Positions 5,592 to 40,860 of a stretch of 64,000 nucleotides of DNA are shown here, piece by piece. The stretch comes from an uncultured delta proteobacterium (GTDB taxonomy: Bacteria; Desulfobacterota; Binatia; HRBIN30). A program made the position numbers and the translations under genes. The stretch is from the NCBI GenBank assembly GCA_963729835.1, contig CAVSQF010000039.1, positions 514,801 through 578,800 on the forward strand, given 5' to 3'. How positions within the stretch are numbered: position 1 is the stretch's first letter; the number at the start of each line of letters is the position of its first letter. The notes under the pieces are model-generated. The model was not told the origin of the DNA and ran no database searches. It was given only the letters and a program-made list of their open reading frames with translations.

Positions 5592-6023
5592 TCACGACCC
5601 AGGATTGACCTCTCGACGGCGGAGCAGCGCATTCCCCCGCGCCAGTTGCTTGCGAAACACCGCTTCATCGCCACTGGTCTCCGCGCGTCGCAAATCGGCG
5701 AGGTTCTGTTTCCTCTGCGAGCGCAGAGCACGGTCTTCGATGCGTTTGATGCAGTCCAAAGCGATCTGGCAACGGTCTGCCGCTGCCACCGCGCCCTCGC
5801 CGAGTAACCCAGCTGCAACCCGTTCTACCATCGTATCCGGCAGCTGATCTACTGCGGATGCACTGCTGCCTTCTCTTTCCCACGCAGCCACAATGGCACG
5901 GCCGGCGTCGGCCAATGTCGCGTTCCGAAAAACGTCCAGCACGCCACGCTCCGCAGCCAGGAGCGCGGCTCCGCGGTCCAACGCCATGGCTTCCAGCAAA
6001 GTCATCTCTTCGGGACGAAACAC
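5592..6023 (-). CDS. Hypothetical helical protein; possibly the detached C-terminal (DnaB-interaction) region of DnaG
   Basis: 143 aa Ala/Arg-rich helical ORF. It overlaps the dnaG 3' end by 22 nt in another frame. dnaG is only 448 aa here, shorter than the typical ~600 aa. Confidence 0.35.
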   Translation of the reverse strand: MFRPEEMTLLEAMALDRGAALLAAERGVLDVFRNATLADAGRAIVAAWEREGSSASAVDQLPDTMVERVAAGLLGEGAVAAADRCQIALDCIKRIEDRALRSQRKQNLADLRRAETSGDEAVFRKQLARGNALLRRREVNPGS

Positions 6024-24318: not shown

Positions 24319-25863
24319 GTGACGCCCGTTAGTTGCCGGATGCCTCACGGGAAAATGACCATGAAATACTTCGTCTCTTGGATCGGCCGACAGGATATCG
24401 AGGGAGCTGCCCGCGAGACTCCAACCGGCCCCATTGTCGACTTTCTCCGCGTGCATCCGGAAGTGACCGCGGTCCTACTCGCAGATTGGGCGAAAGATGT
24501 CACGGCGAAGTACGTCGCAGCCGTGCGGCGCGCGGTCGACGCGACCATCGACATCCGACCCATCAAGCTGAAGGACCCCACCGACTATCTCGGCATTTTC
24601 CGCGCAGCAGACGCGGCGCTGGCGCAGCTGATCCAGGACGTCCGCGCTGACGACATCGCCATTCACACTAGCCCCGGCACCAGTGCGATGGCGGCCGTGT
24701 GGATTCTGCTTGCGAAGACGAAGTACGCCGGTGCGAAGCTGTTCAAGAGTTGGCTCGACACGGACGGCACACCCCAGTTGCGCGAAGTCGAGATTCCGTT
24801 CGACCTCACGCTGGACGTCTTGCCGGACATCGCTGCGCGGCGCGCCGCGCTCCTCGCGCCGTTGGACGTTGCGTTGCCGGTGACGAGGGCCTTCGAACCG
24901 CTGATCCATCGGAGCACGATGATGGCCGCCGTGATCCGTAACGCGCGACGCGCCGCGCTCTACCCGAACCCGGTCTTGATCCTCGGCGAATCCGGCACCG
25001 GCAAAGAAGTGCTGGCGCGGGCGATCCATGCCGCCAGCTTGCGTGCCGGCAAGCAGTTTCAACCCAAGAACTGCGCGGCCATGCCGCGCGATCTGCTTGA
25101 CGCCGAGCTGTTCGGGCATGTCAAAGGCGCCTACACGGGAGCCGTTGCCGACCGCCCCGGCCTGTTCGAGGCGTGCGACGGCGGCAGCGTGTTCCTCGAC
25201 GAGGTGGGCGACATGGCGCCGGAGACGCAGGTGCGGCTGCTGCGCGTGTTGCAGGACGGGGAGATTCAGCGCGTCGGCGAGAGCAGAACGCGAAAGGTTG
25301 ACGTGCGCGTGATTGCAGCGACGCATCGCGACCTGATCGCGGCGATGCGCGACGGCGCCTTTCGCGAGGATCTCTTCTACCGCCTGGCCGTGCTGGTGCT
25401 GCACATCCCGCCACTGCGAGAACATCCCGAGGATATCTTCTCGCTCGCGCAGCACTTCCTCGCTGTCTTGAACGAGCGTGCCGCCGCGATTCCCGGCGCC
25501 GAGCGCAAGCATCTTTCCCCTGACGCAAGGAAGTTTGCGGAGAGCTACCCGTGGCCGGGCAATGTGCGCGAGCTGGAGAACACGTTGGCGCGCATCTTCG
25601 CGCTGGTGTCCGGTGACACGATCCGCGGTGAGGATTTCAAAGCCCACGTGATTCCGACCGACGCCGCCAGCACCGAAGTAATTCCGTTGTCCGCACGGAA
25701 AAACTTCAGCCTGAATGAGGAACTTGAAGCCGTCGAGCGACGGTTGATCGAGCAAGCGTTGCGTGAGTGCGGCGGCACCAAGGAGCGCGCCGCGAAGCTT
25801 CTTGGGCTTGCGAGCCGGCAGGCGTTGGCGCATCGTATCCGCCGTTTGGGTGTTCCATCGTAA
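24319..25863 (+). CDS. Sigma-54-dependent transcriptional activator, RtcR-like (non-receiver, CARF-like N-terminal sensor + AAA+ + Fis HTH)
   Basis: Central AAA+ sigma-54 activator motifs: [19 protein letters not shown] (Walker A), [28 protein letters not shown], and the [14 protein letters not shown] signature. C-terminal Fis-type HTH ([17 protein letters not shown]). The N-terminal ~200 aa carry no REC/PAS/GAF hallmarks. The segment [29 protein letters not shown] resembles the RtcR CARF-domain motif as recalled from memory. A likely true start is at 24361 (MKYFVSWIG). Confidence 0.8.
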
Positions 25864-25867
25864 CCGG

Positions 25868-25885
25868 TTGGCACGCTGGCTGCTA
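25868..25885 (+). promoter_or_regulatory. Sigma-54 (-24/-12) promoter
   Basis: TTGGCACGCTGGCTGCTA closely matches the consensus YTGGCACGrNNNTTGCW, with only the first T of the -12 TTGC element deviating (CTGC). It lies 5 nt after the activator gene stop and faces the downstream small ORF and hsdR. Confidence 0.55.
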
Positions 25886-25936
25886 TTCAGTAGTGCAAGG
25901 TGAGCACAGATGGAGAGAGGGAGTTGAACATGGGAG

Positions 25937-26248
25937 GTGCAGCCGAGCGCATCTCTCTTCACGGCAGCCCTGTCGTTGGCGCGCGCTTTGGTTGTACGGG
26001 AGCGCGTTCAGCAGGCACGGGTGCAGGCCGAGTTCAGCGCCATCGAGGCCGCCGTGGGCCGCATCGCCAAGGCGGCGGAGTCGCTCAGCGACATCGTCAG
26101 CATGGCCGGCACGGTTCGTTCGCATGGCGAAAAGATCCGCGACCGCGCCGAGCGCCTCCAGGACGAAATCGACAAGCAGCTTGAAGTGTTGCGGCAGAAT
26201 GTGGAAGGACTAAGGGACCATTCCGAAGGGGACGGTGCAGCAGCTTGA
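25937..26248 (+). CDS. Small helical/coiled-coil protein of unknown function, first gene downstream of the sigma-54 promoter
   Basis: 103 aa ORF with strong GC3 coding bias. The overlapping 25900 frame is Arg/Gly-rich off-frame noise. Its stop overlaps the hsdR start (TTGA). Confidence 0.45.
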   Translation: MQPSASLFTAALSLARALVVRERVQQARVQAEFSAIEAAVGRIAKAAESLSDIVSMAGTVRSHGEKIRDRAERLQDEIDKQLEVLRQNVEGLRDHSEGDGAAA

Positions 26249-28486
26249 GCGACGCCCAAAAAGAAACCGACGCACGAATCGCGATCGACGATATGCTCCG
26301 GCAGGCACGCTGGGACCCGGCGGACAAGTCACAGGTGTTGACAGAGTTCACCGTTAAGCAGGCGTCTGGACTTGTCAGTGAGGAAGACGGCTTTGCGGGT
26401 ATCATCCATAGCGACGGCGATGACATGCCGACCGGACGCGCCGACTACGTGCTGCTGGATCAACGCGGACGTCCGCTTGCCGTTGTTGAAGCCAAACGCA
26501 CAGCTATCCAGCCCTACACCGCCAAGCAGCAGGTCCTTCCCTACGCCAAGAGCATCGGCGCGCCGTTCATCTTTCTAACAACGGCGAGGTGATCTACTTC
26601 TGGGACTACCCAACGACGACGCGCGCATCGTCAACTCGTTCTACTCCCGGCGCGACCTCGAACGTCTGGTCGAGATGCGGGCAGACACAGAAGCCGCTGG
26701 CGACGATTCCGATTCCCGAGCTATTACCTGAGGCAGGGCGAGACAGCGCGCGGTCCGCCCGTACCAGAAAGAAGCCATGCGCGCCCTCGACCAAGCCGTC
26801 GAACTGGGCAAGCGCCGCTTCCTCATCGAGCTGCCGACCGGCACCGGGAAGACGGACCTGATCTGCCTCTACCTCAAGCGCCTCATCAGAGCCGGCCGCG
26901 CTGAGCGCGTCTTTTTCTTGGTGGACCGCGAGCAACTCGCCAAGCAAGCGCTGGAGGCGATGCAAGACATCCTCAACCGGCACGGCAGCTATTGGCTCAA
27001 GCCGGGCATGATTCGGCAGGAGCAACAGATTACGGTCTGCCTGCTCCAGACGATGATCGGCCGCTATCAGGAGTTCACCAGCGGCTACTTCGATGTGGTC
27101 ATCGCCGATGAGTGCCATCGTTCCATCTATGGTGCCTGGCAGACGGCACTTACCCATTTCGACGCGCTCCACATCGGCCTGACTGCCACCCCGGCTGCCT
27201 ACATTGAACGGAACACCTTCCAGCTTCTATCACTGCAAGGACAGCGCAGCCGGACTTCTCCTACCCGATTCAAGAAGCTTTCGAAGAGGAGTACCTGGTC
27301 CCCTACAAGTTCGCCACCGGCATCACCGAGCTACTCGCTGAGGGTGCAGACGTGGACGATGAGCACTACGACCCAGCCGAGTTCGAGCGCAAATGGACCA
27401 ACGAGGACACCAACCGCAAGATGATGGAGGAGTTCGACCGGCTGGCCTGGGAGAACTACAAGGAGCTGGCGCCCGACCAGAAAGTTGGCCCGGGCAAGGC
27501 CATCGTCTTTGCGATCACCAAGCACCACGCCGCTCGGCTGGCGCAGTATCTCAACGAACTGCATCCCGGAGCAGAAAGGGCGCTACGCCGAAGTGATCAC
27601 CTCCGACGTTGCCAACGCCGAGGATCTCATCCGGCGCTTCAAACAGGAAGACTACCCGCAGATCGCCGTCAGCGTGGGCATGCTGGACACCGGTTTCGAT
27701 TGCCGCGAGGTGCTGCATCTGGTCATGTGCCGGCGCGTCCGCAGCCCGATCCTCTACCAGCAGATGCGCGGCCGCGGCACGCGCACCGCACCGCACATCG
27801 GCAAAGAGAAGTTCGTCATCTACGACTTCTTCGGCAATCACGAGTTTTTCAACGACAGCGACACGGACATCTTCGTCGGCACTGGTACTGGCCACGTGCC
27901 CAGCCCGCGGCCACCCCGACCGCCCGGCGGCCGTAACCTCATCGAGCTGGGTCTGGAGGACGAGTGGCTGCAAGCGGTCACCTACGTTGAAGTCGGGCCG
28001 CAAGGCGAGCGCATCGACAAGCAAGACTACGTAAGTCGACTGGGAGCAGGCCATCCGCGCTGCGGCGAAGGATGACGAGGTCGCTGCGTAAGGTGCGAGG
28101 CGGGTATCGAGCTAACGGCGGAAGAAGAGCAACGGCTTGCGGACAAGCTCAATCGTCCGGAGCACTACTTCAACGAAGAAAACCTGCGGCGCGCTTATCG
28201 CAACCCGGGCGGAACGTTGGTTGACTTCATCAGGCACGCGCTGGGAACGGCCAAGGTGAAGAGCCGCGAGGAAGTGGTCACCGAAGATTTCCGCGCGTGG
28301 CTCGTCTCCAAGAACCTCACGCCGGATCAGGCGCAGTACCTGGCCTTGCTCAAGAACCGCGGTATAGTGCGCGGCAAGGTGGACGTCGACGACCTCTTCC
28401 AGCCACCACTGTCGATTCTGAACGCTGCCAGCTCGGCGTCGAGCTGTTCGGCGAGAAGGGCCTGCAGGAGATCGTCACCGAAATGA
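26245..28486 (+). pseudogene. hsdR: Type I restriction enzyme R subunit HsdR, heavily degraded
   Basis: HsdR homology (nuclease N-terminus ADYVLLDQRGRPLAVVEAKR; helicase motifs I TGTGKT, II DECH, III TATP; DUF3387-like C-terminus) is spread over at least 6 ORF fragments in all three frames. Lesions mapped by frame tracking: 1-nt deletions near 26578 and 26611; an in-frame TGA at 26729; frameshifts near 27245, 27568, 28052/28098 (a compensating pair) and 28430. Confidence 0.8.
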
Positions 28487-30188
28487 ACGAGGCGATCTTC
28501 GCCAGAAGGCGCATAGCGGCGATGAACCAAGCCCTGCGCAGAAAGCTCGACCACATCACCGACATCCTGTGGGCTGGTGGGGTTACCAATCCGGTGACTT
28601 ACATCGAGCAGATTTCTTACCTCATTTACCTCAAGCTGCTCGACGAGGAGGAGTCGGTCCGTGAGCTGCAGGCGCGGCTCACCGGGAGGCGCGGCAACGG
28701 TAACAGCAAGAGTCTCTTTCCGCAGCAGGCTGAGCGCTACCGTTGGTCGAAGTGGCGCTTCAAGAGCGGCGAGGAGCTGCGCAACTTCGTGCGCGACGAG
28801 GTCTTCCCCTACATGGGCTCGCTGGTGCGGGAAGAACCGCAGATCGCCGAGTACTTCCGCGACGCGGTCTTGGAGATCGTCGACCCCAACGTGCTCAAGC
28901 AAGTCATTGATGAACTCGACAGCATCGACTTCCGCAAGCTCGGCACCGACGTGAAGGGCGACATCTTCGAGTATCTGCTCACTCATCTCGGCCAGTCGGC
29001 GCTCAACGGCCAGTTCCGCACGCCGCGGCAGATCCGCACGATGATGGTGGCGATGCTCGATCCCGATCTCGGCGACACGATTTTCGATCCGGCGTGACGG
29101 CACTGCAGGGTTCCTCATCGACTCCGTTGAACACATCCTGGCCAAGTACTCCGAGAACGCCGCAGGAGGTGCCGATCTACGGCGAGGAGTGGCTGGAGAA
29201 GCGCGGGCAAGCAATTGAAGAAGTCAAGGCGCAGATCCCCACGCTGCAGACGTATCGGAAGGGCGCCGGCGAAAAGATCCCGGACTGGGAGCTGCTGGAG
29301 CGGTCCATCTACGGCATCGACGTTTCGCGGCAGATGATGCGCATCGGCATGATGAACCTGGTCCTGCACGGCATCCGGCACGCGCAGGTGAAGCGCGCCA
29401 ACAGTCTCTCTGAGATGGGCGGGCTGAGTGAAGAGGACCTGCGGCGGCGCTACAAGGTCATTCTGTCCAACCCGCCGTTCGCCGGCGTGCTTCCGAGGGA
29501 ATCGATCCGCAAGGATCTGGGGACCAGCTCGAAGAAGAGCGAGCTACTGTTCCTCGGGCTGATGATGCAATCGCTCGCGCCGGGCGGCCGTTGCGCCGTG
29601 ATCGTACCCGAAGGGCTGCTGTTTGGCTCAACGTCGGCGCACGTCGAGCTCCGCCGCAAGCTCGTCGAAGAGTTCGAGTTACTCGCGGTCGTCTCACTGC
29701 CCGCGGGTGTTTTCAAACCTTACGCCGGAGTAAAAACGGGTGTCCTGGTGTTTCGCAGACCAGTGACCACTGATCACTCGTCACTGACCACTGCTCGTAA
29801 AGTCTGGTTCTACGAAATCCACGCCGACGGCTACGACCCCGACAAGATCACCGGCGGCGGCCGGCCGGAGACGCCTGAGCGGAATGACATCCCGAATCTT
29901 CTATCGCAATGGGCGACATACAAAGCATCCGGCTTCCGCGAACCGCCTGGGCATGAAGCCAACTCCCTTCTCAGTCCGGACGACTCCGCAGCGAGTTGCT
30001 GGTGGGCAACTGTCGGACTCGTTGCTGAGAACGACTACAATCTCGCGGCTGGGCGCTACAAGCCACAGGTCGCTGAGAAGGCGCCGGAAGAGAAACCCGA
30101 ACAGGTCGTCCAAGAGGTCCTCTCGATCGAGCGCGAGATTGAAGTGGGACTGGAACGACTGCTCAGGGATATTGAGACCGCACGGTAG
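28483..30188 (+). pseudogene. hsdM: Type I R-M methyltransferase HsdM, apparently disrupted by two +1 frameshifts
   Basis: The HsdM_N region and motif I (GQFRTPRQI...IFDPA) read in one frame up to a TGA at 29095. DPACGTAGFLIDSVEHIL continues only after deleting one base. The downstream part (YGIDVSRQMMRIGMMNLVLHGI, NPPF) is in the third frame, which requires a second shift near 29170-29215. Confidence 0.6.
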
Positions 30189-31451
30189 ATGGAACACAGA
30201 GGCTCAATGGCGTTTCCTTGGCGGCGTGTTCCGTTCGAACACGCGTGCTCGGACACGACGGGCGGTCAGATGAAGGTCCAGAAGCGCGACTATCTCACCG
30301 ACGGCCCTCTGCCGGTAGTCGACCAAGGGCAACAACCTGTCGCAGGATACACGGATGCATTGGATGCAGCCTATCGCGGCCCACTGCCTGTTGTGCTTTT
30401 TGGAGATCACACACGCGTGTTCAAGTACGTGGATTTCCCGTTCGCGCTCGGAGCGGATGGAGTGAAAGTACTCGTCGCGAAGCATCCTTTCCATCCCAAG
30501 TTTCTTTGGTTCTACTTCCGGTCCCTGCAGATCCCGAGCCGCGGGTACAGCCGCCATTTCAAATTCTTGGGCGAGTTTGCGGTGCCGCTTGTGGCTCCAT
30601 CCGAGCAGCGGCGCATCGTGGAGATCCTCGACCAGGCCGAGGCGCTGCGGAAGCTGCGCGCCGCGGCCGACGCCAAGGCCGAGCGCATCCTGCCCGCGCT
30701 CTTCTACAAAATGTTCGGCGACCCGGCGACGAACCCGATGGTGTGGCCAATCTCGAAGCTTGGCGACCCCGACATTACATTGGAGTTCCGCTACGGAACA
30801 TCGAGCAAGTGTGAGCCCGAACCGCAGGGATTGCCCGTCTTGAGAATACCGAACGTGTTGAAGGGGGAGATCGACTTGGCTGATCTGAAGTATGCAGATC
30901 TATCGGGAGCTGAAGTCGAGCGCCTGCTCTTGGCGCGAGGGGATCTGCTCTTCGTGAGGACGAACGGAAACCGGGAGTATGTGGGCCGCTGCGCGGTCTT
31001 TGATCTTCCCAAGCCTTTCTTGTTCGCTTCCTACCTTATCCGCGCACGGCTGAACGCCTCGAAGGTTGACCCTTGGTACGTGGCCGCGTTTCTTCGGAGC
31101 CCGGTGGGCCGCCAGCATATGTCACCGGTGATTCGAACCACGGCCGGTCAGTCGAACATCAGCGTCGAAGGACTGAGCAACATCGAGATACTTGTGCCCC
31201 CAATTGAACATCAGCATCGATTTCGGTCGCTGACCCAGGAACTGCTTAGACTTCGGCGCCAACGTGAGTCCGCAGCGGCAGCACTACAGACCGCGTTCGA
31301 AACGCTGCTTCATCGTACATTCTCCGGCGACCTGACGGCCAAGTGGCGCGAGGCGCACATGCAGGAGCTGCTGGCGGAGATGGAGGGGCAGGCGAAGGCT
31401 CTAGCCGGAGCAAATCCCGACACGGCTGTCGAGCGCGGGGCTCTCGTATGA
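30189..31451 (+). CDS. hsdS: Type I R-M specificity subunit HsdS (two target-recognition domains, intact)
   Basis: 420 aa with two TRDs separated by a conserved central region and a C-terminal coiled-coil repeat (LRKLRAAADAKAERILPALFYKMFG ... LLRLRRQRESAAAALQTAFETLLHRTF). Confidence 0.8.
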   Translation: MEHRGSMAFPWRRVPFEHACSDTTGGQMKVQKRDYLTDGPLPVVDQGQQPVAGYTDALDAAYRGPLPVVLFGDHTRVFKYVDFPFALGADGVKVLVAKHPFHPKFLWFYFRSLQIPSRGYSRHFKFLGEFAVPLVAPSEQRRIVEILDQAEALRKLRAAADAKAERILPALFYKMFGDPATNPMVWPISKLGDPDITLEFRYGTSSKCEPEPQGLPVLRIPNVLKGEIDLADLKYADLSGAEVERLLLARGDLLFVRTNGNREYVGRCAVFDLPKPFLFASYLIRARLNASKVDPWYVAAFLRSPVGRQHMSPVIRTTAGQSNISVEGLSNIEILVPPIEHQHRFRSLTQELLRLRRQRESAAAALQTAFETLLHRTFSGDLTAKWREAHMQELLAEMEGQAKALAGANPDTAVERGALV

Positions 31452-33109
31452 TTACCGCGCTCCGCATCGGCAACTTCAAGGCCTTCGCCGAACCGCAAAC
31501 GGTTCCGATCAAACCCCTCACGCTCATCTTCGGCGCCAACAGCGCAGGTAAGTCGAGCATCATCCATGGGCTGTTGCTCGCACACGAAGCGAACCGCACG
31601 GGCAATCTCAACGTGCTGCGGACCGAGCTGGGAGGTGACTCGGTCGACCTCGGAGGGTTCCGCCAGTATACGCACCGGCATCAGGACTGGCAGCCGGTAC
31701 ACTGGGGCGTCGAGATGCAGGTGGCCGCCTTGAGTGGTCGCCTCGCCGAGTTGCTCACGCCGGCTAGGACGGTTGCGCTCCAGTTGCTCATCGGCGTGCG
31801 AGAGAGTTCGTGGGAAGTGCCAGAGGTTGTGGAGACGCTTGCCTATGACCTGGTCGTTGACGAGGTCAGCCTCCTCCGCGCCAGCCGGCGGAAGATTGAA
31901 GACTTCATGCAGCCGACCGAAGACATGCGGCTTGACCGGATAGACCATCACCATGCGGTTATCGAAAGGATTCTGGGCGCCATCGTTGAAACCAGTACGA
32001 CGGCAACCAAAATCTCTGCTTCTGATCTGGAGAGCGTCGCAGAAGCCGTCGACGCTTTGGTCCCTGCGTTGAGTGTCACGGGAAAGGGTCTGCTTCCTAA
32101 CCGCGTAACCGTTGAGGCAACATCGCCGGGAGACGAGAGTCGGACTTTGTTTCCGGTGGGCAAGGGGAGCCGGCACGAGGATCTGGCCGCAGCGGTCCGT
32201 TTTGTCCTCCCGCGCACGCTCAGTGAATTGATCGGCGGACTAAGCGAGGTGGCGCGCAGTGAATTGGGCCGGCTGCGCTATCTCGGCCCGTTGCGCTCTT
32301 ACCCGCCTCGGCACCTCGCATCGGACCAGTATCACGACCCGAACTGGCTTGCCGGCGGTGGGCACGCCTACGAGGTGCTGCGCACCAATGAGTCTGTGCG
32401 CTCCGCCGTAAACCGATGGCTGAGCGATCCCGAAAAACTCAGTACGCCGTATGAGGTGCGGGTCGAGCACCTTGTGACCGTCGACGATCTGGAGCTGGCC
32501 TATGCGAGGAGGGTTGAAAGCGAACGGGATGCACTCGCGGATGTCCTCGAAGTCCCCGAGGACGAGGCGGCCGATCTCTCGGAATGGAAGGAAGAGGAGG
32601 TGTCGTTCGATCACCTCCGAGAATTGGAGCACAGCGAAGCGCGGCTGCAGGTCTTGCACCTCGTCGACAAACGAACCGAAACACAGGTCACTCACCGTGA
32701 CGTGGGCATCGGCATCAGCCAGGTGTTGCCCGTGCTGGTAAGCGCGTACGGTTCCTCGGACCTGATCGTCGCCATCGAGCAACCTGAGATCCACCTGCAT
32801 CCCGCCCTTCAAGCCGAGCTTGCCGATGTCTTCATCGACTCCGCACTCGGGGAACGCAAGAACACCTTCCTCCTCGAAACGCACAGCGAGCACCTGATCC
32901 TCCGGGTGATGCGCCGGATGCGGGACACTGTTCGTGGCAAACGCGGTGATGCGCCGCCGGTGAGACCGGAGGACGTAGCCGTGCTGTTCGTCGAGCCCAC
33001 CACCAAGGGCTCAATCGTGCACGAACTGCGGCTGAAACCGGACGGCTCGCTGCTCGATCCGTGGCCCGGCGGCTTCTTCGAGGAAGGGTTCGGCGAGCTG
33101 TTCGGGTGA
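31448..33109 (+). CDS. ABC-type/SMC-like ATPase of the AAA_21 family with a DUF3696-like C-terminus
   Basis: Walker A FGANSAGKSS, the signature D-loop/Walker B DLIVAIEQPEIHLHP, H-loop LLETHSEHLI, and a C-terminal DPWPGGFFEEGF. The ATG overlaps the hsdS stop (ATGA), which implies translational coupling. Confidence 0.7.
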   Translation: MITALRIGNFKAFAEPQTVPIKPLTLIFGANSAGKSSIIHGLLLAHEANRTGNLNVLRTELGGDSVDLGGFRQYTHRHQDWQPVHWGVEMQVAALSGRLAELLTPARTVALQLLIGVRESSWEVPEVVETLAYDLVVDEVSLLRASRRKIEDFMQPTEDMRLDRIDHHHAVIERILGAIVETSTTATKISASDLESVAEAVDALVPALSVTGKGLLPNRVTVEATSPGDESRTLFPVGKGSRHEDLAAAVRFVLPRTLSELIGGLSEVARSELGRLRYLGPLRSYPPRHLASDQYHDPNWLAGGGHAYEVLRTNESVRSAVNRWLSDPEKLSTPYEVRVEHLVTVDDLELAYARRVESERDALADVLEVPEDEAADLSEWKEEEVSFDHLRELEHSEARLQVLHLVDKRTETQVTHRDVGIGISQVLPVLVSAYGSSDLIVAIEQPEIHLHPALQAELADVFIDSALGERKNTFLLETHSEHLILRVMRRMRDTVRGKRGDAPPVRPEDVAVLFVEPTTKGSIVHELRLKPDGSLLDPWPGGFFEEGFGELFG

Positions 33110-33116
33110 ACCTTGG

Positions 33117-34016
33117 ATGCTGCACCTCGTTTACTTTGCGCCCGAGAATCTGTCCGATCCCGTCGTTCTGAGTGATGCTGGCGCCGGTCTCCTGATCAGC
33201 GTGCTGCGCTCACTCCTCCAGAACTGCCTCCTGCTTGATTTCACCGACTACCGCTTTGACGACCGCGTCGCCGTGGAAGTGGAAACGCTGCCGCATGAGC
33301 TCAGAAAGATGGTCAAGGTGCTGCTCGCGCAGTTCAAGAAAGCAAATCGAATCATCCGGGCACTGAAGGACGACTACGCCGGCTCCACCGAATTGCACCT
33401 GGCAGCCGAGCAGGCGGCGCAACTCGGCCTGGAATTGGTGATCATCCGTGCCGACACCGAATGGGACCCGCAGGCGACCCGAGTGCCGCGGGCCTCGCTC
33501 ACCGGCTACCCGATGACGGACTTCGAAGCCGTTCGCTCACAAGGTGTTGCAGACCGGCATTACAGTGATGATGGGATACCGGCGACCCAGTTCATCGAAG
33601 TGTATATCGTTCCGTTCGTGCGATTCGCCGAACGGCTCGACCTCATCGATGGCTCACTGGGAGAGAACTACCGGGACGACTACGGGCATACCCTGGATTG
33701 CCTCTTCGCGGCGCTTGGCAGGTCATGCCACTGGAAGGAACGTGTGCAGGTCACGATCCACTGCTGCCGGGGTGCGGGTAACAAACCCGATCACGTGCGC
33801 GACACGGTGCTTGAGTTGACAAAGAAGCACGGGCTCGACGGTCATGCGCAGACCTATTTCTACGGCGACCCCGGCCAGCCGTTCAGGTTCAAGCACGACC
33901 GTTGCCTCGCATCTGAATTTGGGAGTCCTGAACATCGGCCGTGGCTTCGACTTCGTCCAGAAGGCGGACGGCAAGCTCAAGAATACAATCATCGGTTTCG
34001 GCGGACCAGACGCTGA
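33117..34016 (+). CDS. Hypothetical 299-aa protein, predicted partner of the upstream ATPase
   Basis: Intact ORF 8 nt after the ATPase stop. No recognisable motifs: no obvious TOPRIM E...DxD, HNH or HEPN Rx4-6H signatures were found. Confidence 0.4.
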   Translation: MLHLVYFAPENLSDPVVLSDAGAGLLISVLRSLLQNCLLLDFTDYRFDDRVAVEVETLPHELRKMVKVLLAQFKKANRIIRALKDDYAGSTELHLAAEQAAQLGLELVIIRADTEWDPQATRVPRASLTGYPMTDFEAVRSQGVADRHYSDDGIPATQFIEVYIVPFVRFAERLDLIDGSLGENYRDDYGHTLDCLFAALGRSCHWKERVQVTIHCCRGAGNKPDHVRDTVLELTKKHGLDGHAQTYFYGDPGQPFRFKHDRCLASEFGSPEHRPWLRLRPEGGRQAQEYNHRFRRTRR

Positions 34017-34137
34017 CACAATGCTCGCACCGTATGTCGCGATCAGGAGTTAGTGACGGTGCCGAGACCTCCACCCGCGCGGATTCGGATCTACCCCAAG
34101 CTGCTGGCGGGCTCCGCGGAGTAGAAGGTGACGCCGA

Positions 34138-34518
34138 GTGATCGGAAAGGCCGCCTGCAAGGCGCGGCGTGAGGGCACGCCGGCTCCAGAATTCGTGTTC
34201 TTTCTGGCGCCCAGCCTGCGTATTGCGGAACCTATACTCGCGTGTTACCCGCTGGGCTTCTCTGCGCGCGCGCAGCATGCGCTCTTCAACTTCATCGCTG
34301 CCGGCGCGGTGGCCATCACCGACTTTGGCGCCGCGGACGTCTCTCGTGCCGCGGCGCTGATGCAGCGCTTCGCCAATCTGCCGATGGATTTTGCGGATGC
34401 CACCCTGGTCGTCCTCGCCGAGCGCCTGCACGCGACCACCGTGTTCACACTCGACCGCCGCGACTTCACCGTCTACCGGGTCGGCCGGCGCACCCTTCGC
34501 CTACTCCCTAAAGGCTGA
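34138..34518 (+). CDS. PIN-like (VapC-family) protein with substituted first catalytic Asp
   Basis: C-terminal half matches VapC (MDFADATLVVLAERLHATTVFTLDRRDFTVYR). The N-terminal strand reads FFLAPSL instead of the canonical LDTS. Confidence 0.35.
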   Translation: MIGKAACKARREGTPAPEFVFFLAPSLRIAEPILACYPLGFSARAQHALFNFIAAGAVAITDFGAADVSRAAALMQRFANLPMDFADATLVVLAERLHATTVFTLDRRDFTVYRVGRRTLRLLPKG

Positions 34519-34542
34519 CCCAGGCCGTGTCGCCGTCGTGGC

Positions 34543-34950
34543 TCACGCGGGGCGCACCCGCTCGATCTTGAGCTTCGAGTGCCGTGCGAGGACATCGTAA
34601 TCGCGATCATTGTGCAGCAGCGACGCCCGCTCACGGATCGCCACGGCCGCGATCAAGCAGTCGATCAGCTTGCGCACCGTGTCCCCCTTGCGGCGACAGG
34701 TGCGATACAGCTCCGCCGCACCTTCGAAGTCGGGCAGCCCCCGGAGGCGCAGGCGCGGCAGGCCGAGTAGCAGGACACGCATGCGGGCGTGATCGGCGCC
34801 CGTCCTCGCGCCGGCGAGCACCTCCATGATCACCACCTCGGTCGTCGCGATCGGGGCACACGCTTGCAACAGGTGCCTGAGAGCCAGGTGCGTCGGGTGA
34901 CCGCTCTTGCGCAGGAACTCGATCCAGGCGGAGGTATCGACGAGAATCAT
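34543..34950 (-). CDS. vapC: Type II toxin VapC (PIN domain)
   Basis: MILVDTSAWIEFLR... is the canonical PIN N-terminus, and acidic residues are conserved. Confidence 0.85.
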   Translation of the reverse strand: MILVDTSAWIEFLRKSGHPTHLALRHLLQACAPIATTEVVIMEVLAGARTGADHARMRVLLLGLPRLRLRGLPDFEGAAELYRTCRRKGDTVRKLIDCLIAAVAIRERASLLHNDRDYDVLARHSKLKIERVRPA

Positions 34951-35246
34951 CGTCCGCCGCGCGCGCGCCGCAGCTCGGCCAGGTTCCCCTCCCAGCCAGC
35001 TCCCTCCAACTGCAACAGCTCCTCGTACAGGTCAATCTCCTTCAGGCGCCCCGTTCGCTTCGCCCACTCCTCGATCTCAGGCCAGTCCCACGCCGGTTGT
35101 CCGGACACCGTCCACCGTGGCAGCGGGAGCAACCCCCGTTGACGCCAGGTATGGACGGTCTGGGCCTTCACGCCCAAGCGGGAGGCGATCTCGGCAGCCC
35201 CGACGGGGATCGATTCCGGCACCGGCGCAGCCGCAGTAGAGGGCAT
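34947..35246 (-). CDS. vapB: Antitoxin with an N-terminal HTH (excisionase/AlpA-like); cognate VapB-type partner
   Basis: 99 aa. Has a 4-nt overlap with vapC and an HTH-like segment (AAEIASRLGVKAQTVHTWRQRG). Confidence 0.55.
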   Translation of the reverse strand: MPSTAAAPVPESIPVGAAEIASRLGVKAQTVHTWRQRGLLPLPRWTVSGQPAWDWPEIEEWAKRTGRLKEIDLYEELLQLEGAGWEGNLAELRRARGGR

Positions 35247-36126: not shown

Positions 36127-38763
36127 TCACGTTTTCGTCCTTTCCTTTTCTGGCCGGGGTTTCTGCGCGCTGAATGGTTGGCGTGCGACAGTCTCTTCCG
36201 CAGGTCTGATCAGTCTACCCAGGTCGGCCCGGAGCTTGGCCGCGAAGTGAGCCACCAGGCTGGCATCAGCCATGGCCATGTCCAGTTGGCGGGTGTGTAT
36301 GATCAGGTGGCCTAGGGCTCGCACGCTCTCCAAGGCCTCGGCATCACTCAAGTGGTCCCGGCGCGCCCGTATGGCATCGGCACGGATGACCGCCGCGAAA
36401 CCCAACTCCTCCAGCAGTTCGGCCATGAGGTGAAGGCGGGTCTGCTTGCGGGCCATGTCGGCCCCGCCGCCTTGGAAGGCGAACAGCACAAAATCTTCCT
36501 CTGGGTCGGGACCGGCCAAGACTTCCACCGCAGCAAAGTGCGCTCCCAGCCGCGATTGCAAGTTCATGAAGTCGCGCCCCACCAGGAAGTAGTTGCCTTC
36601 TTCCCAACCGGCACGGGTCTCCAGTTCCGGCCGCATGGTGGACTGCACGATGACCGAAGTCAGCCCGGAGCCGGTGATCGGCGGCCCATCCCAGGGCACA
36701 GCCAGCATGCCCTCCCACAGGGCCAGCCATGGCCGACTGGCGATCTGCTCGACGCGCACATACTTGCCGCTCACCTCTTCCGTGAAGCCGCCGCCGATGT
36801 CGATGAGCCGCCACTGCATAGGTGCGTTGCAGTAGAGCCTCTTGGCTGCAGCGACCGGAAACTTCTTCCCGCCCAGGCTGAAGATCTCGCGCACCGCCTG
36901 CTCATGGCAGAAACGGGTTAGATCATGCAGGGTGCGACAACTCGCCACATTGAACTCTGGGGAAGATGGGTCCGGGAGGTTCAGCGGTACGGCCAATGCG
37001 ATGAGCTGCTCGAGGCTGCGCCGGATAGGGGTCTGCGGTGCCGGCGGCGCCGGCCGGGCTCTCAGCAGGCCCTCCACGCGGCCGGGATAGATAGCTCGGC
37101 GGTCCGCATCCACTGTGATCACCTTCCCTTGCCTCGAGCCGTTTCAAATCCGGCCCCACGTCCAGAAGCGCCGGCACCCTAAACTCTCGCGCCACGGTGG
37201 CTAAATGGCCCGCCAGCCCGCCGTGGCCCGCAACCAAGGCCTCAGCCCGGCTCAAGAGAGGGGCCCAACGTGGCAGCGGCCGCTCTACAACCAGCACCTG
37301 GCCGGCCTCGAAGAGCATGGCGTCACGCCCGGTACGCACCCAGTGCACCACCCCAGCGGCTGCCCCAGGTGCGGCCCCGAGCCCAGCGCTGATGATCGGA
37401 TCAGGCAGCCCCTCCACCAGCGGCTGGGCGGCCGCTGCAGCTTGACGGTGGAGCGGCCGACATTGCAGGTAAACCAGCTGCCCTCCCCTATCCAGTGCCC
37501 ACTCCAAGTCCTGCGGCCCCCCGAATGCCATCTCCACCTCTTTAGCACAGGCAGCTAGTTCCTTGGCCAGGTCATCGCTGAGCGGACTTGTGTTTCTTAG
37601 CCCCTTTGGTAGCTCAGCCGACAGCACCCCGCTGGAAGGGTCGCACTGGTAGTAGCGGTCCTGGCTGCCGGCGCGGCGCTGCAGGACTCCGCTTTCGGTG
37701 TCCACCACGATCTCCACGGCCTCTGCCGAGCCGTCCACCACGCCCTTGGGCAGGCCCCAGCAGGCGCTGATGTACACCCTGCCGTCGGCCGGGTCCAAGG
37801 GTGAGGCACTGTACACCACCCCTCCAGCTCGGGCCGGAAGCATCACCAGGCAGCCCGCTGCCATGGCTAGGTCCTGGTCTCTCAGACCATGGTGGCCATA
37901 GTAACTAAGGGCCTGCGGGCCGTAAGCGCTGGCAACGACCTCGCGATAGGCCTCGCACAGTGCGGCGGGCGTTACGTTCAACTCGGTGTGAAACTGACCG
38001 GCAAAGGAAGCCGCGCCCACGTCCTCTCCCAAAGCGCTGGAACGCACCGCAAGCTTCAACTCGGGACCGTGGCGCTGGAGCAGCCGTTGGCAGGCGGCCG
38101 CCATTTCCTGTTCCAACTCCGGGGGCAACTCGCCCTCGATGAAGAGCCGCTGCAAAGCGGAACAGGCGGCAAACAGCTCGTCGACCCCGCTCAGACTCTT
38201 GATCTGCAGCAGCCGGTTGATTTCGGCGCGCAGGTCGTTGTGCTCCACGAAGCGGGCGTAGGCCACGGTGGTGATCACGAACCCGTCGGGCACCGTCAGC
38301 CCCAGCCGGTTGCCCAGTTGTGCCAGTGTGGCCATCTTGGGGCCGGCCAGGTCATCAGCCCCTACGCCAAGCTCACCCAACTCAACCACAAGGGGCCGTG
38401 GGGCAACGGCCGCGCCCCGGCGACCTGCTCGTCCAGCTCCCGCTTCAGCGCCGTGAAGCGCTCCATCAGCGCGGTGTAGCGTCCCGGTGCTAGCTTCTGC
38501 AGTTCCTGGATCATGGCCAACACGCTCACCGCCATTTCGGTAGCCGCCGAACGCAGGCGCGCCATGGTGACGGGCTCCGGACTCTGCTGAGCCTCTTGGA
38601 GTTCGGCCATGATGGTCAACGCCCGGCTGTTGGCCTTGAGCAGGTTGCGGTAGCCCAGGAACCGCCCCGCGAGACGAGTGCGTAGCTCGGCCAGCACCGC
38701 CTGATCCTGCGCACCAGACCGGCCGCGGAACAGGGACTTGATCAGGGTGCCCCAGCCGCCCAT
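36127..38763 (-). pseudogene. Swivel-histidine dikinase-like protein (N-helical + PPDK_N/ATP-grasp + PEP-utilizers mobile His + novel C-terminal domain), paralog A; two frameshifts
   Basis: ORFs 38362..38763 (helical N-terminal domain, homologous to the paralog B N-terminus), 36923..38389 (PPDK_N-like domain and swivel motif GGLAGHLATVAREFRVPAL) and 36127..37122 (C-terminal domain) are collinear with the intact paralog B. Lesions lie near 38375 and 37123 (EG/KVITVDADRR). Confidence 0.6.
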
Positions 38764-38790: not shown

Positions 38791-39183
38791 TTAGGAGGGG
38801 ACCCGGCGCATTAGCTGTGCGCGCTCCCGGGCGTCCCGGATGCGCTCGATCAAGTCGTCCAACTTGACCGGCTTGATCAGGTAATCAAAGGCCCCCAACT
38901 CCACCCCCTCTACGCCGGATCCCACCGAGGCGTGGCCGGTGAGGAGGATCACCTCCACATTGGGGTCGCGGTCCTTGATGGCCTTGAGGGTCACGATGCC
39001 GTCCATGTCTGGCATCTTCACGTCGAGCACTACCACCTCAGCTGGGTTTTCGGCCAACATCTTCAAGGCATCCATGCCGCTGGTAGCCCCGTGGGCATCC
39101 AGCCCCCGACGTTGAAGCCGCCGCACCAGCGACTCCAGAAAGTCGCGCTCGTCGTCCACGATTAGCACTTTGCACTGGCTCAT
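38791..39183 (-). CDS. Stand-alone response-regulator receiver domain (CheY-like)
   Basis: 130 aa with VLIVDDE...D...LDVKMPDMDG...K, the canonical REC residues. Confidence 0.9.
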   Translation of the reverse strand: MSQCKVLIVDDERDFLESLVRRLQRRGLDAHGATSGMDALKMLAENPAEVVVLDVKMPDMDGIVTLKAIKDRDPNVEVILLTGHASVGSGVEGVELGAFDYLIKPVKLDDLIERIRDARERAQLMRRVPS

Positions 39184-39205: not shown

Positions 39206-40828
39206 TCAGCCCCTCTCTGGCTCCGCGATGGGCAGGCTGGCGATGAAAGTGGCTCCTTGAGCCGGTGGGCTCTCGAAGGTCAGCGTACCGCCCATCTTCT
39301 CCATGATGGAGTGGCTTATGGAAAGCCCCAGCCCCGTGCCTTGCCCCAGCGCCTTTGTGGTGAAAAAGGGATCGAAAACCCGTTCGCCTACGTCGGGTGG
39401 CACCCCCGGTCCGCTGTCGGTCACCCGCACCTGCACGAAGTGACCGTCACGGGTGGTAGTGATCACCAACTTTCCGCCTTGGCTGGCAGCGTCGAGTGCG
39501 TTGTTGAGCAGGTTCAGCAGCACCTGCTGGAGTTGGGCACGGTCGGCTGGGATGAGCGGCAGGCTGGAGTCCAACTTGAGCTCGACTGTGAGGTTTTGGT
39601 AGCGTGCTTCTTTCTCCACAAAGGAGAGGGACTCTTTCACCACCTGATTGATATCCAGCTTCTCGAGCGTGGGCTCCATGTGGCGGGCAAACTTGAGCAT
39701 GCGGTGCGTCACATCCCTGGCCCGTTCCACCTGTCCCAGTATCTTACCAAGGTTGTCCCGGCAGAGATCGCCTTCCGGCAGCTGCGCCAGGATCTCGGGA
39801 CGCAGGATATCCTCGAGCTCGCCAGCCAGCTCACCGATGGCGGCCAACGGGTTGTTGATCTCATGCGCCACGCCGGCGGCCATGCGGCCCAAGGACACCA
39901 ACCGGGCCGAGTGCGCCACTTGAGCGTCGAGGGCGGCACGCTCACGGTCGTTGGCCTGAAGCTGTTTAATGAACAGCCGCACCAGTAACAGCACCGAGGC
40001 AATGATGAGGAGGTTGGCCACCCACACGATGGCCATATCCACACGCCTGGCCTGGTTCAGGGGGCCCGGCATCTCCTGAGGGTCCTGGTCTACCACCAAC
40101 AGCCAAGGGATGCTCGACAGCCACGTAAACGCCGTGAACAGCGTGCGCCCATCCGGACCCACCCGTTCCACGACCGTGTTGCCAGGTGGCACCGCCCCAA
40201 CATCGAACTTGGCGGACGTGAGGATTCCCCCGGCAAAGCGGCTAGGGGTTTGCAACTGTCCCCGCGAGTTGACGATATAGGCGTCGCCACTGAGGCCGAC
40301 CTGGGCGCTGCGCACCAGGCGGTTGAAGACCTCCGAGTCGATCGTGGCCCGCAGGATCCAGGGTTCGCCTTCGTCCTCGTGTTTCACCGCGATGACGAAA
40401 TGGGGCACGTTGCGCACGCCGAGAAATACATCGCTGATGTACACTCCCCGAAGCATGACCTGGTGAAACCACTCCGCGTCGCGGTAGTTCTGGTGCTGCA
40501 GGGGATAGGGCCCCACATAGGAAGCGTGGTTGCCCGAGGCGTCGATGACTCCCAGGTCCAGGAAGCTTCGAGTGCGGCGGTTGAGCATCTGGAAGGTTTT
40601 GTTCAACTCGCGCTGGTCACCGAGCTGGGCCAGTTGAGCGGAATGGGCCAATGCTTCCAGCACAGCGGTACGCTCAGCCAAAAAGAGATCAATGGCCTCG
40701 GCGCGGGCGACCGCCCGCACGATCATCTCTTCCTTGAGCTTTTCCTGGTTGGCACGAAGGAAGTAGTAGTAGATCCCGACCCCTAGGACGTTTAAAGGCA
40801 CAAGGGCCACCACTAGGCTGACCAGGGT
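39206..40828 (-). CDS. Sensor histidine kinase (periplasmic sensor domain, HisKA, HATPase_c)
   Basis: Two TM segments flank a periplasmic region of about 280 aa. H-box LAAGVAHEINNPL. N-box, G1 and G2 (DSGPGVPPD...GTGLGLS). The start is chosen at MTLVSLVV to limit overlap with the upstream gene; the track ORF begins at 40933. Confidence 0.8.
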   Translation of the reverse strand, partial: TLVSLVVALVPLNVLGVGIYYYFLRANQEKLKEEMIVRAVARAEAIDLFLAERTAVLEALAHSAQLAQLGDQRELNKTFQMLNRRTRSFLDLGVIDASGNHASYVGPYPLQHQNYRDAEWFHQVMLRGVYISDVFLGVRNVPHFVIAVKHEDEGEPWILRATIDSEVFNRLVRSAQVGLSGDAYIVNSRGQLQTPSRFAGGILTSAKFDVGAVPPGNTVVERVGPDGRTLFTAFTWLSSIPWLLVVDQDPQEMPGPLNQARRVDMAIVWVANLLIIASVLLLVRLFIKQLQANDRERAALDAQVAHSARLVSLGRMAAGVAHEINNPLAAIGELAGELEDILRPEILAQLPEGDLCRDNLGKILGQVERARDVTHRMLKFARHMEPTLEKLDINQVVKESLSFVEKEARYQNLTVELKLDSSLPLIPADRAQLQQVLLNLLNNALDAASQGGKLVITTTRDGHFVQVRVTDSGPGVPPDVGERVFDPFFTTKALGQGTGLGLSISHSIMEKMGGTLTFESPPAQGATFIASLPIAEPERG

Positions 40829-40860
40829 CATGCGCCGAGCAAGCTGCGCGTAGACCTTGA

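Follow-up and report, generated by a model that had tools for sequence, protein, structure and literature searches.

The locus lies in a 64-kb window, by which we mean the whole stretch of DNA that was analysed. It comprises the genes of a type I restriction-modification (R-M) operon, followed by an ABC-type ATPase gene and a partner gene (Table 1). hsdR, hsdM and hsdS are all found in the window. The frames of hsdR and hsdM are broken in the deposited sequence, as the first-pass annotation had stated, and the only uninterrupted genes at the locus are hsdS and the ATPase gene. Two further observations of that annotation were borne out. The hsdS stop and the ATPase start share an ATGA at 31448-31451, and a second open reading frame (ORF) follows the ATPase closely, with a 7-nt spacer between the ATPase stop and the next ATG at 33117. 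Scanning for promoters and terminators did not help: promoter-like sites numbered 2 where 1.4 were expected, and terminator-like sites 11 where 6.9 were expected. A codon-usage Viterbi scan of the window did not by itself separate gene boundaries from frameshifts.

Table 1. Features of the R-M locus in the window.
Feature	Position	Strand	Remarks
hsdR, type I restriction subunit	26245..28527	+	frame interrupted; Pfam HSDR_N, ResIII and Helicase_C on fragments
hsdM, type I methyltransferase	28522..30188	+	frame interrupted at ~29094 and 29156; Pfam HsdM_N and N6_Mtase on fragments
hsdS, specificity subunit, 420 aa	30189..31451	+	uninterrupted; PADLOC Specificity_I 3.9e-76; Pfam Methylase_S
ABC-type ATPase with C-terminal DUF3696 tail, NsnB-like, 553 aa	31448..33109	+	uninterrupted
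effector partner, NsnC-like (predicted PIN-like N-domain and MIT_C-like PLD C-domain)	33117..34053	+	true length 311 aa; split by +1 frameshift
extra A breaking the partner frame	33924..33924	+	window GGGAGTCC vs L005 GGC-GTCC

The ATPase contains the motifs GANSAGKSS, IVAIEQPEIHLHP, LLETHSEHLI and DPWPGGFFEEGF, all of which had been recognized before. In Pfam it matches AAA_15 (E-value 7e-19), AAA_21 (1.1e-14) and DUF3696 (1.1e-5; 25.9 bits vs a cutoff of 22), and its PADLOC matches are PDC-M55A (8.5e-43), NsnB (3.2e-41) and HEC-03B (5.1e-38). The match to AriA is confined to the C-terminal ATPase lobe (1.5e-20), and that to AbiLi to the N-terminal P-loop region (5e-9). Relatives of the ATPase were collected from GTDB species representatives (240 relatives), and 80 loci were read. 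The window ATPase keeps all 66 residues that are invariant in the 80 clade members, and residues 1-562 of the 574-residue ATPase from L001 are matched by the window copy in one frame (tblastn). All 80 clade ATPases score no more than moderately against the PDC-M55A, NsnB and HEC-03B models, the best E-values being 1e-50 to 4e-46. Judging from these scores, the clade is therefore a sister group to the three models, and does not appear to fall inside them. Matches to the ATPase in plasmid and phage collections are partial and distant, with nothing pointing to a plasmid- or phage-borne clade.

The partner gene in the window is frameshifted. Its annotated ORF of 299 residues stops at 34016 and had been taken for an intact protein. 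Homologues are 311-313 residues long, and past residue ~268 they match the +1 frame; tblastn places the switch from frame 3 to frame 1 between 33916 and 33923. The shift, and the production of a 299- instead of a 311-residue protein, is caused by a single surplus base, A33924 (GGG-A-GTC). Deleting it gives back RCLASEFGVLNIGRGFDF and a stop at 34053. The 299-residue product misses G276 and D278, which are conserved at 99% and 96% in the family. The earlier view that both genes of the pair are intact is thus correct for the ATPase and incorrect for the partner.

Sequence searches with the window partner gave nothing credible in PADLOC, Pfam, NCBIfam and PHROGs (Pfam returned ATPgrasp_N alone, E-value 0.022), and a sequence-profile search of the PDB gave noise (E-value > 0.5). 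A first AF2 run with 12 sequences, which reached a pLDDT of 67 and left the N-terminal domain unresolved, was replaced by a run with 115 sequences. The structure predicted from a homologue 68% identical to the partner (pLDDT 96.8) has a PIN-like domain at the N terminus and a MIT_C-like phospholipase D (PLD) fold at the C terminus. Conservation across 115 highly divergent partner sequences is 96-100% at D178, H260, R262, G276 and D278. The motif of the family reads H260-D-R262-x3-(S/T)-(E/D), an HDR variant like that of MIT_C, and the signature of the C-terminal domain is D...HDR...GxD. Our first guess, the classical HxK(x)4D (HKD) PLD motif, is absent from the family and was dropped in favor of the MIT_C-type HDR motif. 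Among 75 partners scored, 7 are matched by Pfam MIT_C, 5 by PADLOC NsnC and 4 by BrxL. MIT_C-like PLD domains occur also in BrxL and in human MITD1; the MIT_C of MITD1 is a membrane-binding domain and is not known as an enzyme.

These features resemble NsnC of the Menshen system, which consists of NsnA, NsnB and NsnC (Millman et al. 2022; analysed in Li et al. 2025, PMC12065111). The PIN-like domain of the modeled partner has no conserved acidic quartet, as in inPIN. PB-PLD1 is described as having a D/E after β2 and the HDR before β5 (PMC12065111). In the model, D178 is located at a strand end and HDR 260-262 shortly ahead of a later strand, and by our own strand count this placement fits the description. 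The predicted architecture of the partner is that of the NsnC class with inPIN and PB-PLD1 domains.

Catalysis by PB-PLD1 has only been hypothesized (PMC12065111). The C-terminal domain of the partner could instead bind membranes or phospholipids like the MIT_C of MITD1, or act on lipids, so that the effector would act at the membrane to kill the cell or arrest it, or it could be a non-catalytic adaptor. We consider this improbable. The 96-100% conservation of the five residues argues for a catalytic or ligand-binding pocket, and most NsnC effector slots are filled by nucleases (PMC12065111). We infer that the partner is a nuclease.

Analysis of the related loci revealed that the pair recurs beside hsdS in other genomes, in keeping with the earlier proposal of a conserved defense-type pair physically tied to this gene. 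An ORF of 305-361 residues follows the ATPase in 74 loci, its longest-ORF start located -55 to +17 nt from the ATPase stop. The partner is conserved elsewhere: 68 of the 76 ORFs trailing the ATPase are homologues of the one in the window. Measured against the window copy, the ATPases have a median identity of 48% and the partners one of 21%. The usual gene order is hsdR-hsdM-(cargo)-hsdS-(cargo)-ATPase-effector. Of the 63 loci with flanks of 7 kb or more, 59 have hsdM upstream and on the same strand, and the other 4 lack it; the order and orientation of this linkage are fixed across more than 15 phyla. The coupling to hsdS is often translational. hsdS is directly 5' of the ATPase in 35 of 70 loci, and in 26 of these 35 the distance is within -11 to +16 nt. 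In half of the loci, hsdS and the ATPase are separated by other defense genes; GmrSD, OLD-TOPRIM, SIR2, KwaB and YhcG are among the insertions, and L089 has YhcG directly upstream. The R-M genes of the relatives are almost all intact, with hsdR in 62 of 66 and hsdM in 57 of 61 aligning in a single frame. Several cultured strains have apparently complete loci; intact operons are found, for instance, in Massilia timonae CCUG 45783 and Thermomonas fusca DSM 15424. Co-location with R-M genes could mean no more than co-transfer and shared transcription.

Reading all frames of the 64-kb window, we found no DG[QN]QR motif, and there was no DUF262 match in Pfam among the upstream neighbor ORFs of the ATPase in related loci. 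A DUF262 motif is present in 7 of 82 related loci, 4 of them GmrSD insertions. The DGQQR motif scan and the Pfam search of the immediate neighbors indicate that NsnA is absent from the module. Together, the sequence comparisons suggest that the pair is a widespread Menshen/HEC-03-like variant, consisting of two genes and appended to type I R-M operons. The effector is without a model in PADLOC v2.0.0, Pfam, NCBIfam 20.0 and PHROGs, and the pair is uncatalogued there. The first-pass annotation had called it uncharacterized, which is too strong: its architecture appears to be that of Menshen NsnB and NsnC (PMC12065111), and its ATPase is related to that of HEC-03 (bioRxiv 10.1101/2024.01.29.577857).

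The pair might be an autonomous abortive-infection or toxin-like module, with inserts in the ATPase sensing a trigger of its own as in PARIS or Septu. The end of the R-M operon would then be a permissive site that provides co-transfer and co-expression, and there would be no functional coupling to HsdS, HsdM or HsdR. The related two-gene HEC-03 functions when cloned without an R-M partner (bioRxiv 10.1101/2024.01.29.577857), and the intercalation of many unrelated defense genes at the same sites, the YhcG directly upstream at L089 and the loci without hsdM are consistent with such a module. However, the order and orientation with hsdM are fixed across phyla, the ATPase start often overlaps the hsdS stop or follows it within 16 nt, and a module missing the dedicated Menshen sensor would have no obvious DNA-sensing component. 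On balance we regard autonomy as rather unlikely.

The broken frames in the window can be read in different ways. Relative to the intact HsdR of L002, L005 and L088, hsdR has 4 net frame changes (frames 1/2/1/2/1 in tblastn), and ~14 single-nucleotide indels are present relative to L001 and L005. hsdM has 2 net frame changes involving three frames (tblastn with the HsdM of L001 and L002), with single-base insertions at 29094 and 29156. The dN/dS of the hsdR branch is 0.055 in the window and 0.054 in the intact L088, suggesting no relaxed selection on the window hsdR at the substitution level. The clustered single-nucleotide indels in hsdR, together with a dN/dS equal to that of intact orthologues, therefore point to assembly errors or very recent events. 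Given this pattern, long-standing decay is less likely than assembly error or very recent damage.

It is quite possible, if short of probable, that the locus is instead a truly decaying remnant with real pseudogenes. The frame breaks are concentrated, with 17 of about 20 in the 64-kb window located within the 7.8-kb locus. Real deletions of hsdM-C, hsdS-N and the ATPase have occurred in syntenic relatives, and ~340 nt found downstream in L005, encoding an RHH antitoxin and a PIN N-terminus, are missing from the window. However, every frame-shifting indel is 1 nt (13 insertions vs 4 deletions), and 10 of 15 successive indel spacings in hsdR-hsdM are at most 80 nt. In the shifted segments the conserved peptide can still be read in another frame, substitutions in hsdR are as constrained as in intact orthologues, and frame breaks are also seen elsewhere in the window, in dnaG (probable) and a PPDK-like gene.

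Because the indel pattern favors error or recent damage, the window copy is uninformative on selection for the pair. The first-pass annotation had proposed that the ATPase and the 299-residue protein, perhaps with HsdS, were kept by selection as a stand-alone defense pair after hsdR and hsdM died. This proposal draws on the uninterrupted frames of hsdS and the ATPase next to the broken ones of hsdR and hsdM. The chance that 3 indels outside hsdR all miss hsdS and the ATPase is about 0.1, and the uninterrupted frames are therefore not evidence of selection. In addition, the partner is frameshifted and has lost the near-invariant G276 and D278, intact hsdR and hsdM accompany the pair in relatives, the ATPase has been lost by deletion in the syntenic L005-L007, and the window hsdR shows no relaxation. 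Selection on the pair in place of restriction is very improbable. In a long-read-style contig, broken frames should not be taken as a sign of selection.

We propose that 31448-33109 and 33117-34053 probably constitute a two-gene ATPase and effector module of the Menshen NsnB/NsnC type. We infer a role in defense and a coupling to the R-M enzyme for the clade. By analogy to Menshen, Septu, PARIS and PrrC, oligomers of the ATPase may hold the effector via its PIN-like domain. A trigger tied to the condition of the type I enzyme encoded alongside them, possibly an anti-restriction protein inhibiting R-M or engagement with unmodified DNA, would alter ATP binding or hydrolysis. The PLD-fold effector would then be released or activated and cut nucleic acid, providing second-line or abortive defense. 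More tentatively, and with considerable doubt, we suggest that NsnA was replaced in its sensor role by the type I R-M complex, either HsdS/HsdM or the whole enzyme. The ATPase would sense whether the R-M enzyme had stalled on unmodified DNA or was being blocked by an anti-restriction protein, and would then release the PLD-fold nuclease. Were this so, the type I operon would contain a built-in second-line effector, a PrrC-like guard made from Menshen parts.

If the module works as proposed, an effector under ATPase control is hard-wired into a large and phylogenetically broad set of type I R-M operons. It would represent a natural experiment in sensor swapping, with the R-M enzyme in place of NsnA, and a second, more widespread case of the PrrC type, in which latent nucleases guard restriction enzymes. 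The module would also offer a tractable system for testing whether MIT_C-like PLD domains are enzymes. A terminal module of this kind may escape methods that use as their anchor DUF262 or genes lying between those of a system.

The pair was compared with known systems. No TOPRIM or DUF4435 match was found in the partner with Pfam and PADLOC. Membership in PARIS, AbiL and RloAB, which the first-pass annotation had named among the systems whose match would refute its proposal, was rejected on the lack of a TOPRIM in the partner, and the pair belongs to none of them. MADS was also rejected, the matches to mad3 and mad5 being weak and a MAD4-like gene missing. PARIS likewise has two genes, and its ABC ATPase sequesters a nuclease and frees it upon sensing an anti-restriction protein. 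However, the effector of our pair is not a TOPRIM/DUF4435 protein, and AriA is without the DUF3696 tail. PrrC/EcoprrI and RloA-RloB/AbiLi-AbiLii are ABC-ATPase modules genetically wired into type I R-M loci, and PrrC sets the precedent of an R-M enzyme guarding a latent nuclease. PrrC is a single ATPase-anticodon-nuclease polypeptide, and RloB and AbiLii are TOPRIM/DUF4435 proteins; none of these systems has a PIN-like and PLD-fold partner or a DUF3696 tail.

PDC-M55, an unvalidated candidate in PADLOC v2.0.0, provides the top PADLOC ATPase model for the whole clade (best E-value 1.4e-50). The score is far under the level of family members, and no PDC-M55 model matches the partner. HEC-03 is a validated two-gene system in which defense requires both genes (Payne et al. 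2024, bioRxiv 10.1101/2024.01.29.577857). It also combines an ABC ATPase of the DUF3696 group with a PIN-domain partner and was found attached to a methylase-based system. Unlike the partner here, in which a PIN-like domain without the acidic quartet is predicted to be fused to a PLD-fold domain, the HEC-03 partner is VapC-like, and its PADLOC model matches none of the 75 partners. The match to the HEC-03B model is moderate (5.1e-38 for the window ATPase, 4.4e-46 for the best of the clade). HEC-03 is embedded in Hma, whereas our pair is appended to type I R-M.

In architecture the pair resembles Menshen, for which an NsnB4-NsnC2 complex joined via DUF3696 and the inPIN domain has been predicted with AlphaFold 3 (PMC12065111). 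The window ATPase is NsnB-like, of the ABC type with a DUF3696 tail. The effector is encoded directly 3' of it, and its inactive-PIN-like N-terminal domain and MIT_C-like, D...HDR-containing PLD domain match inPIN and PB-PLD1. In both cases the effector is much more variable than the ATPase, and association with R-M systems is frequent. The PADLOC NsnB match, however, is moderate (E-values 1e-41 to 1e-48 for ~560 residues), and the ATPase is longer than the NsnB model, which has a length of 345. NsnA (ParB-DUF262 and ParBDB), the defining anchor of Menshen, which is encoded immediately before the ATPase in that system, appears to be missing; hsdS takes this place in the window, and the module has a fixed position after hsdS, closing type I R-M operons at their 3' end.

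In the window, the type I restriction-modification (R-M) operon is followed by two extra genes, which encode an ATPase and a partner protein. The TGA of hsdS is shared with the ATG of the ATPase gene in an ATGA at 31448-31451, as described in the first-pass annotation. The ATPase motifs cited there are all present in the 553-aa protein. The Walker A lysine is K35. We also compared 80 related ATPases (the clade); the 66 residues that are invariant among them are read as kept in the window ATPase.

Features of the R-M locus and its surroundings in the window
Feature	Position	Strand	Description
dnaG	5592-7348	-	Apparently split into two ORFs: 448 aa (Zn-ribbon, primase core, Toprim, DnaB_bind) and 143 aa (other frame, overlaps the end of the first, carries the coding signal onward)
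Sigma-54-dependent activator	24319-25863		514 aa; unassigned ~190-aa N-terminal domain; just 5' of the R-M locus
103-aa ORF	25937-26248		Immediately 5' of hsdR, overlapping its start; coding-like GC3
Type I R-M operon, then two extra genes	26245-34053	+	
hsdS	30189-31451	+	420 aa, uninterrupted; PADLOC Specificity_I, 3.9e-76
ATPase gene	31448-33109	+	553 aa; Pfam AAA_15, AAA_21, DUF3696
Partner ORF	starts at 33117	+	7-nt spacer after the ATPase gene
VapC-like PIN gene	34054-34518		Pfam match confined to the C-terminal half of the model
Second PIN gene and MerR-like HTH gene	34543-35246	-	
PPDK_N/PEP-utilizers paralogue	36127-38763	-	Three ORFs; two frameshifts, near 37130 and 38380
Response regulator	38791-39183		Between the PPDK-like paralogues
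Histidine kinase	39206-40933		Between the PPDK-like paralogues
PPDK-like paralogue	40861-43455		864 aa, intact

A Pfam search matched the 103-aa ORF to no family. The same slot in relatives holds other unknown genes, of 380 aa in locus L005 and 530 aa in locus L088. The counterpart of the sigma-54 activator in loci L005-L007 is cut to 157 aa and adjoins rtcB and an archease gene, so the activator may be RtcR-like.

The pair is widespread. Among GTDB species representatives, 240 ATPase relatives were found, and 80 of their loci, spanning more than 15 phyla, were examined. Candidate carriers in culture are Massilia timonae CCUG 45783 (L030), Thioalkalivibrio sulfidiphilus ALJ17 (L034), Aquabacterium lacunae KMB7 (L037), Paraburkholderia bannensis NBRC 103871 (L074) and Thermomonas fusca DSM 15424 (L080). 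An ORF of 305-361 aa lies 3' of the ATPase in 74 loci, with its longest-ORF start between 55 nt before and 17 nt after the ATPase stop. After one HMM iteration, 68 of 76 such ORFs are homologous to the window partner. The eight negative loci (L033, L036, L039, L043, L046, L047, L048 and L083) encode proteins of 324-356 aa, and the sole MIT_C match among them, in L083, is weak (E 0.003). These proteins represent a strongly diverged branch or else an exchanged effector. Identity to the window copy across relatives is about 48% for the ATPase and just about 21% for the partner.

The pair is also linked to type I R-M. Of the 63 loci with 7 kb or more of flanking sequence, 59 have hsdM upstream in the same orientation and 56 have hsdR. 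Among the loci examined, hsdM could be aligned in one frame in 62 of 66 and hsdR in 57 of 61. HsdS is encoded directly upstream of the ATPase in 35 of 70 loci, at spacings of -11 to +16 nt in 26 of the 35. The pair recurs beside hsdS in other genomes. Where HsdS is not directly upstream, other defence genes are intercalated. In close relatives of the partner, the order is hsdR-...-hsdM-hsdS-(DUF433/DUF5615)-ATPase-partner in L001, hsdR-hsdM-GmrSD-hsdS-ATPase-partner in L002, which sits on a conjugative element, and hsdR-hsdM-hsdS-210aa-ATPase-partner in L088. The hsdM/hsdS and hsdS/ATPase junctions serve as cargo sites for unrelated defence genes (L002, L008-L087), including GmrSD, OLD-TOPRIM/AAA_21, SIR2_2, KwaB, pP_pnuc_1, YhcG, DUF6119, RhuM, DUF3800, Uma2 and toxin-antitoxin pairs. 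DUF262 is essentially absent, being detected by motif scan in 7 of 82 loci and nowhere in the 64-kb window.

By sequence, the window ATPase is one of the ABC ATPases with a DUF3696 tail. Every one of the 80 clade ATPases matches the PADLOC models PDC-M55A, NsnB and HEC-03B, but only at 1e-38 to 1e-50. These values are moderate for proteins of ~560 aa, which indicates that the clade is a sister of these models and a member of none. PADLOC matches to AriA, GajA and AbiLi are partial, and NCBIfam 20.0 contains no model for the ATPase.

The partner had been regarded as an intact 299-aa protein. Our analysis indicated a frameshift in it. Across 5.8 billion proteins searched, close relatives numbered only 11, and those of full length are 311-313 aa. 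They follow window frame 0 to ...HDRCLASEF and then the +1 frame, GVLNIGRGFDFVQK...GFGGPDADTMLAPYVAIRS, ending at 34053. Aligned at the DNA level with L005, which is syntenic, the window gene shows one extra base, A33924, in GGG-A-GTC. The 299-aa product as written lacks G276 and D278, which are conserved in 99% and 96% of a 115-sequence alignment.

Sequence libraries (Pfam, PADLOC, NCBIfam, PHROGs and PDB sequence profiles) returned nothing credible for the partner. A profile built from nine full-length homologues and searched against 1.84 billion representatives collected 223 clusters at 50% identity (E ≤ 1e-3), most of them 300-350 aa and matched over their full length. In the 115-sequence alignment, D178, H260, R262, G276 and D278 are conserved family-wide, and the N-domain shows no acidic quartet that is conserved. 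Among 75 partners from related loci, seven match Pfam MIT_C, five PADLOC NsnC and four BrxL. One class of the Menshen effector NsnC combines an inactive PIN domain (inPIN) with 'PB-PLD1', a MIT_C-like PLD domain with D/E after beta-2 and HDR before beta-5 (Li et al., 2025; PMC12065111). The window partner fits this description. By analogy, its MIT_C-like domain may cut nucleic acid.

The first-pass annotation considered hsdR and hsdM dead. Their frames are indeed split, but lasting decay is not the favoured cause. Compared to intact orthologues, hsdR carries about 14 frame-shifting single-nucleotide indels (10 insertions, 4 deletions), hsdM two single-nucleotide insertions and the partner gene one insertion; hsdS and the ATPase gene have none. 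The 17 positions are 26579, 26610, 26684, 26721, 26742, 27222, 27247, 27474, 27492, 27568, 28040, 28081, 28098, 28430, 29094, 29156 and 33924. The indels are clustered, with 10 of 15 successive spacings in hsdR-hsdM at most 80 nt, and in the shifted stretches the conserved peptide can still be read in another frame. In a pseudogene old enough to have gathered 14 indels, an excess of non-synonymous substitutions would be expected, but there is none: dN/dS is 0.055 on the window hsdR branch and 0.054 on the intact L088 branch, which counts against old decay. Breaks are also present in the PPDK-like gene and probably in dnaG; a frameshift in this essential gene hints at indel errors in the assembly. 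We consider it somewhat more probable than not that the indels are assembly errors or very recent damage. Real decay with true pseudogenes is less favoured but plausible: frame breaks are concentrated in the R-M/pair locus, and the syntenic L005-L007 bear real deletions. These loci, from JGI metagenomes, are ~82% identical to the window over 25312-34519. One clean deletion joins the hsdM N-terminus to the middle of hsdS, removing hsdM-C and hsdS-N. The other joins ATPase codon ~8 to partner codon ~49, creating a fusion protein (P0003, MITAL...), a natural loss of the ATPase with hsdR kept. Consistent with decay, the RHH-PIN pair further downstream is ~340 nt shorter in the window than in L005, with the antitoxin (RHH) and the N-terminus of PIN missing. 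Whether the indels are errors or decay, their pattern does not show the proposed selection on the pair over restriction, as the partner is frameshifted too. The window copy adds nothing on selection for the pair.

PrrC is a latent nuclease guarded by a type I enzyme. In Menshen, AF3 predicts an NsnB4-NsnC2 complex joined via DUF3696 and the inPIN domain. By analogy with this complex, Septu, PARIS and PrrC, the ATPase would most likely sequester the effector, and a trigger would free or activate it. Given how strictly the pair is linked to type I R-M, and with NsnA missing, the state of the R-M enzyme is the most attractive candidate trigger. A serious rival is that the pair is an autonomous module merely co-travelling with R-M.

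PARIS, AbiL and RloAB are rejected as identities of the pair, since TOPRIM is lacking in the partner, as first noted. The pair resembles Menshen in its NsnB plus NsnC anatomy and in having a partner far more variable than the ATPase, mirroring the effector polymorphism reported for NsnC. However, it lacks the ParB-DUF262 protein NsnA, the defining Menshen feature. It also resembles HEC-03, a validated two-gene system of an ABC ATPase and a PIN protein in which both genes are needed (Payne et al., bioRxiv 10.1101/2024.01.29.577857), but the effector differs. The Menshen set of Li et al. was gathered with DUF262 as the anchor (PMC12065111), so pairs without NsnA could not enter it. Payne et al. 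sought genes nested inside systems (bioRxiv 10.1101/2024.01.29.577857), and this approach may likewise have missed a module placed 3' of the final hsd gene. The proposal of an uncharacterized defence pair holds in part: the pair exists, is conserved and looks like a defence module, but its anatomy is of the known NsnB plus NsnC type. The description that suits it best is a Menshen/HEC-03-like ATPase-PLD module without NsnA, attached to the end of type I R-M operons.
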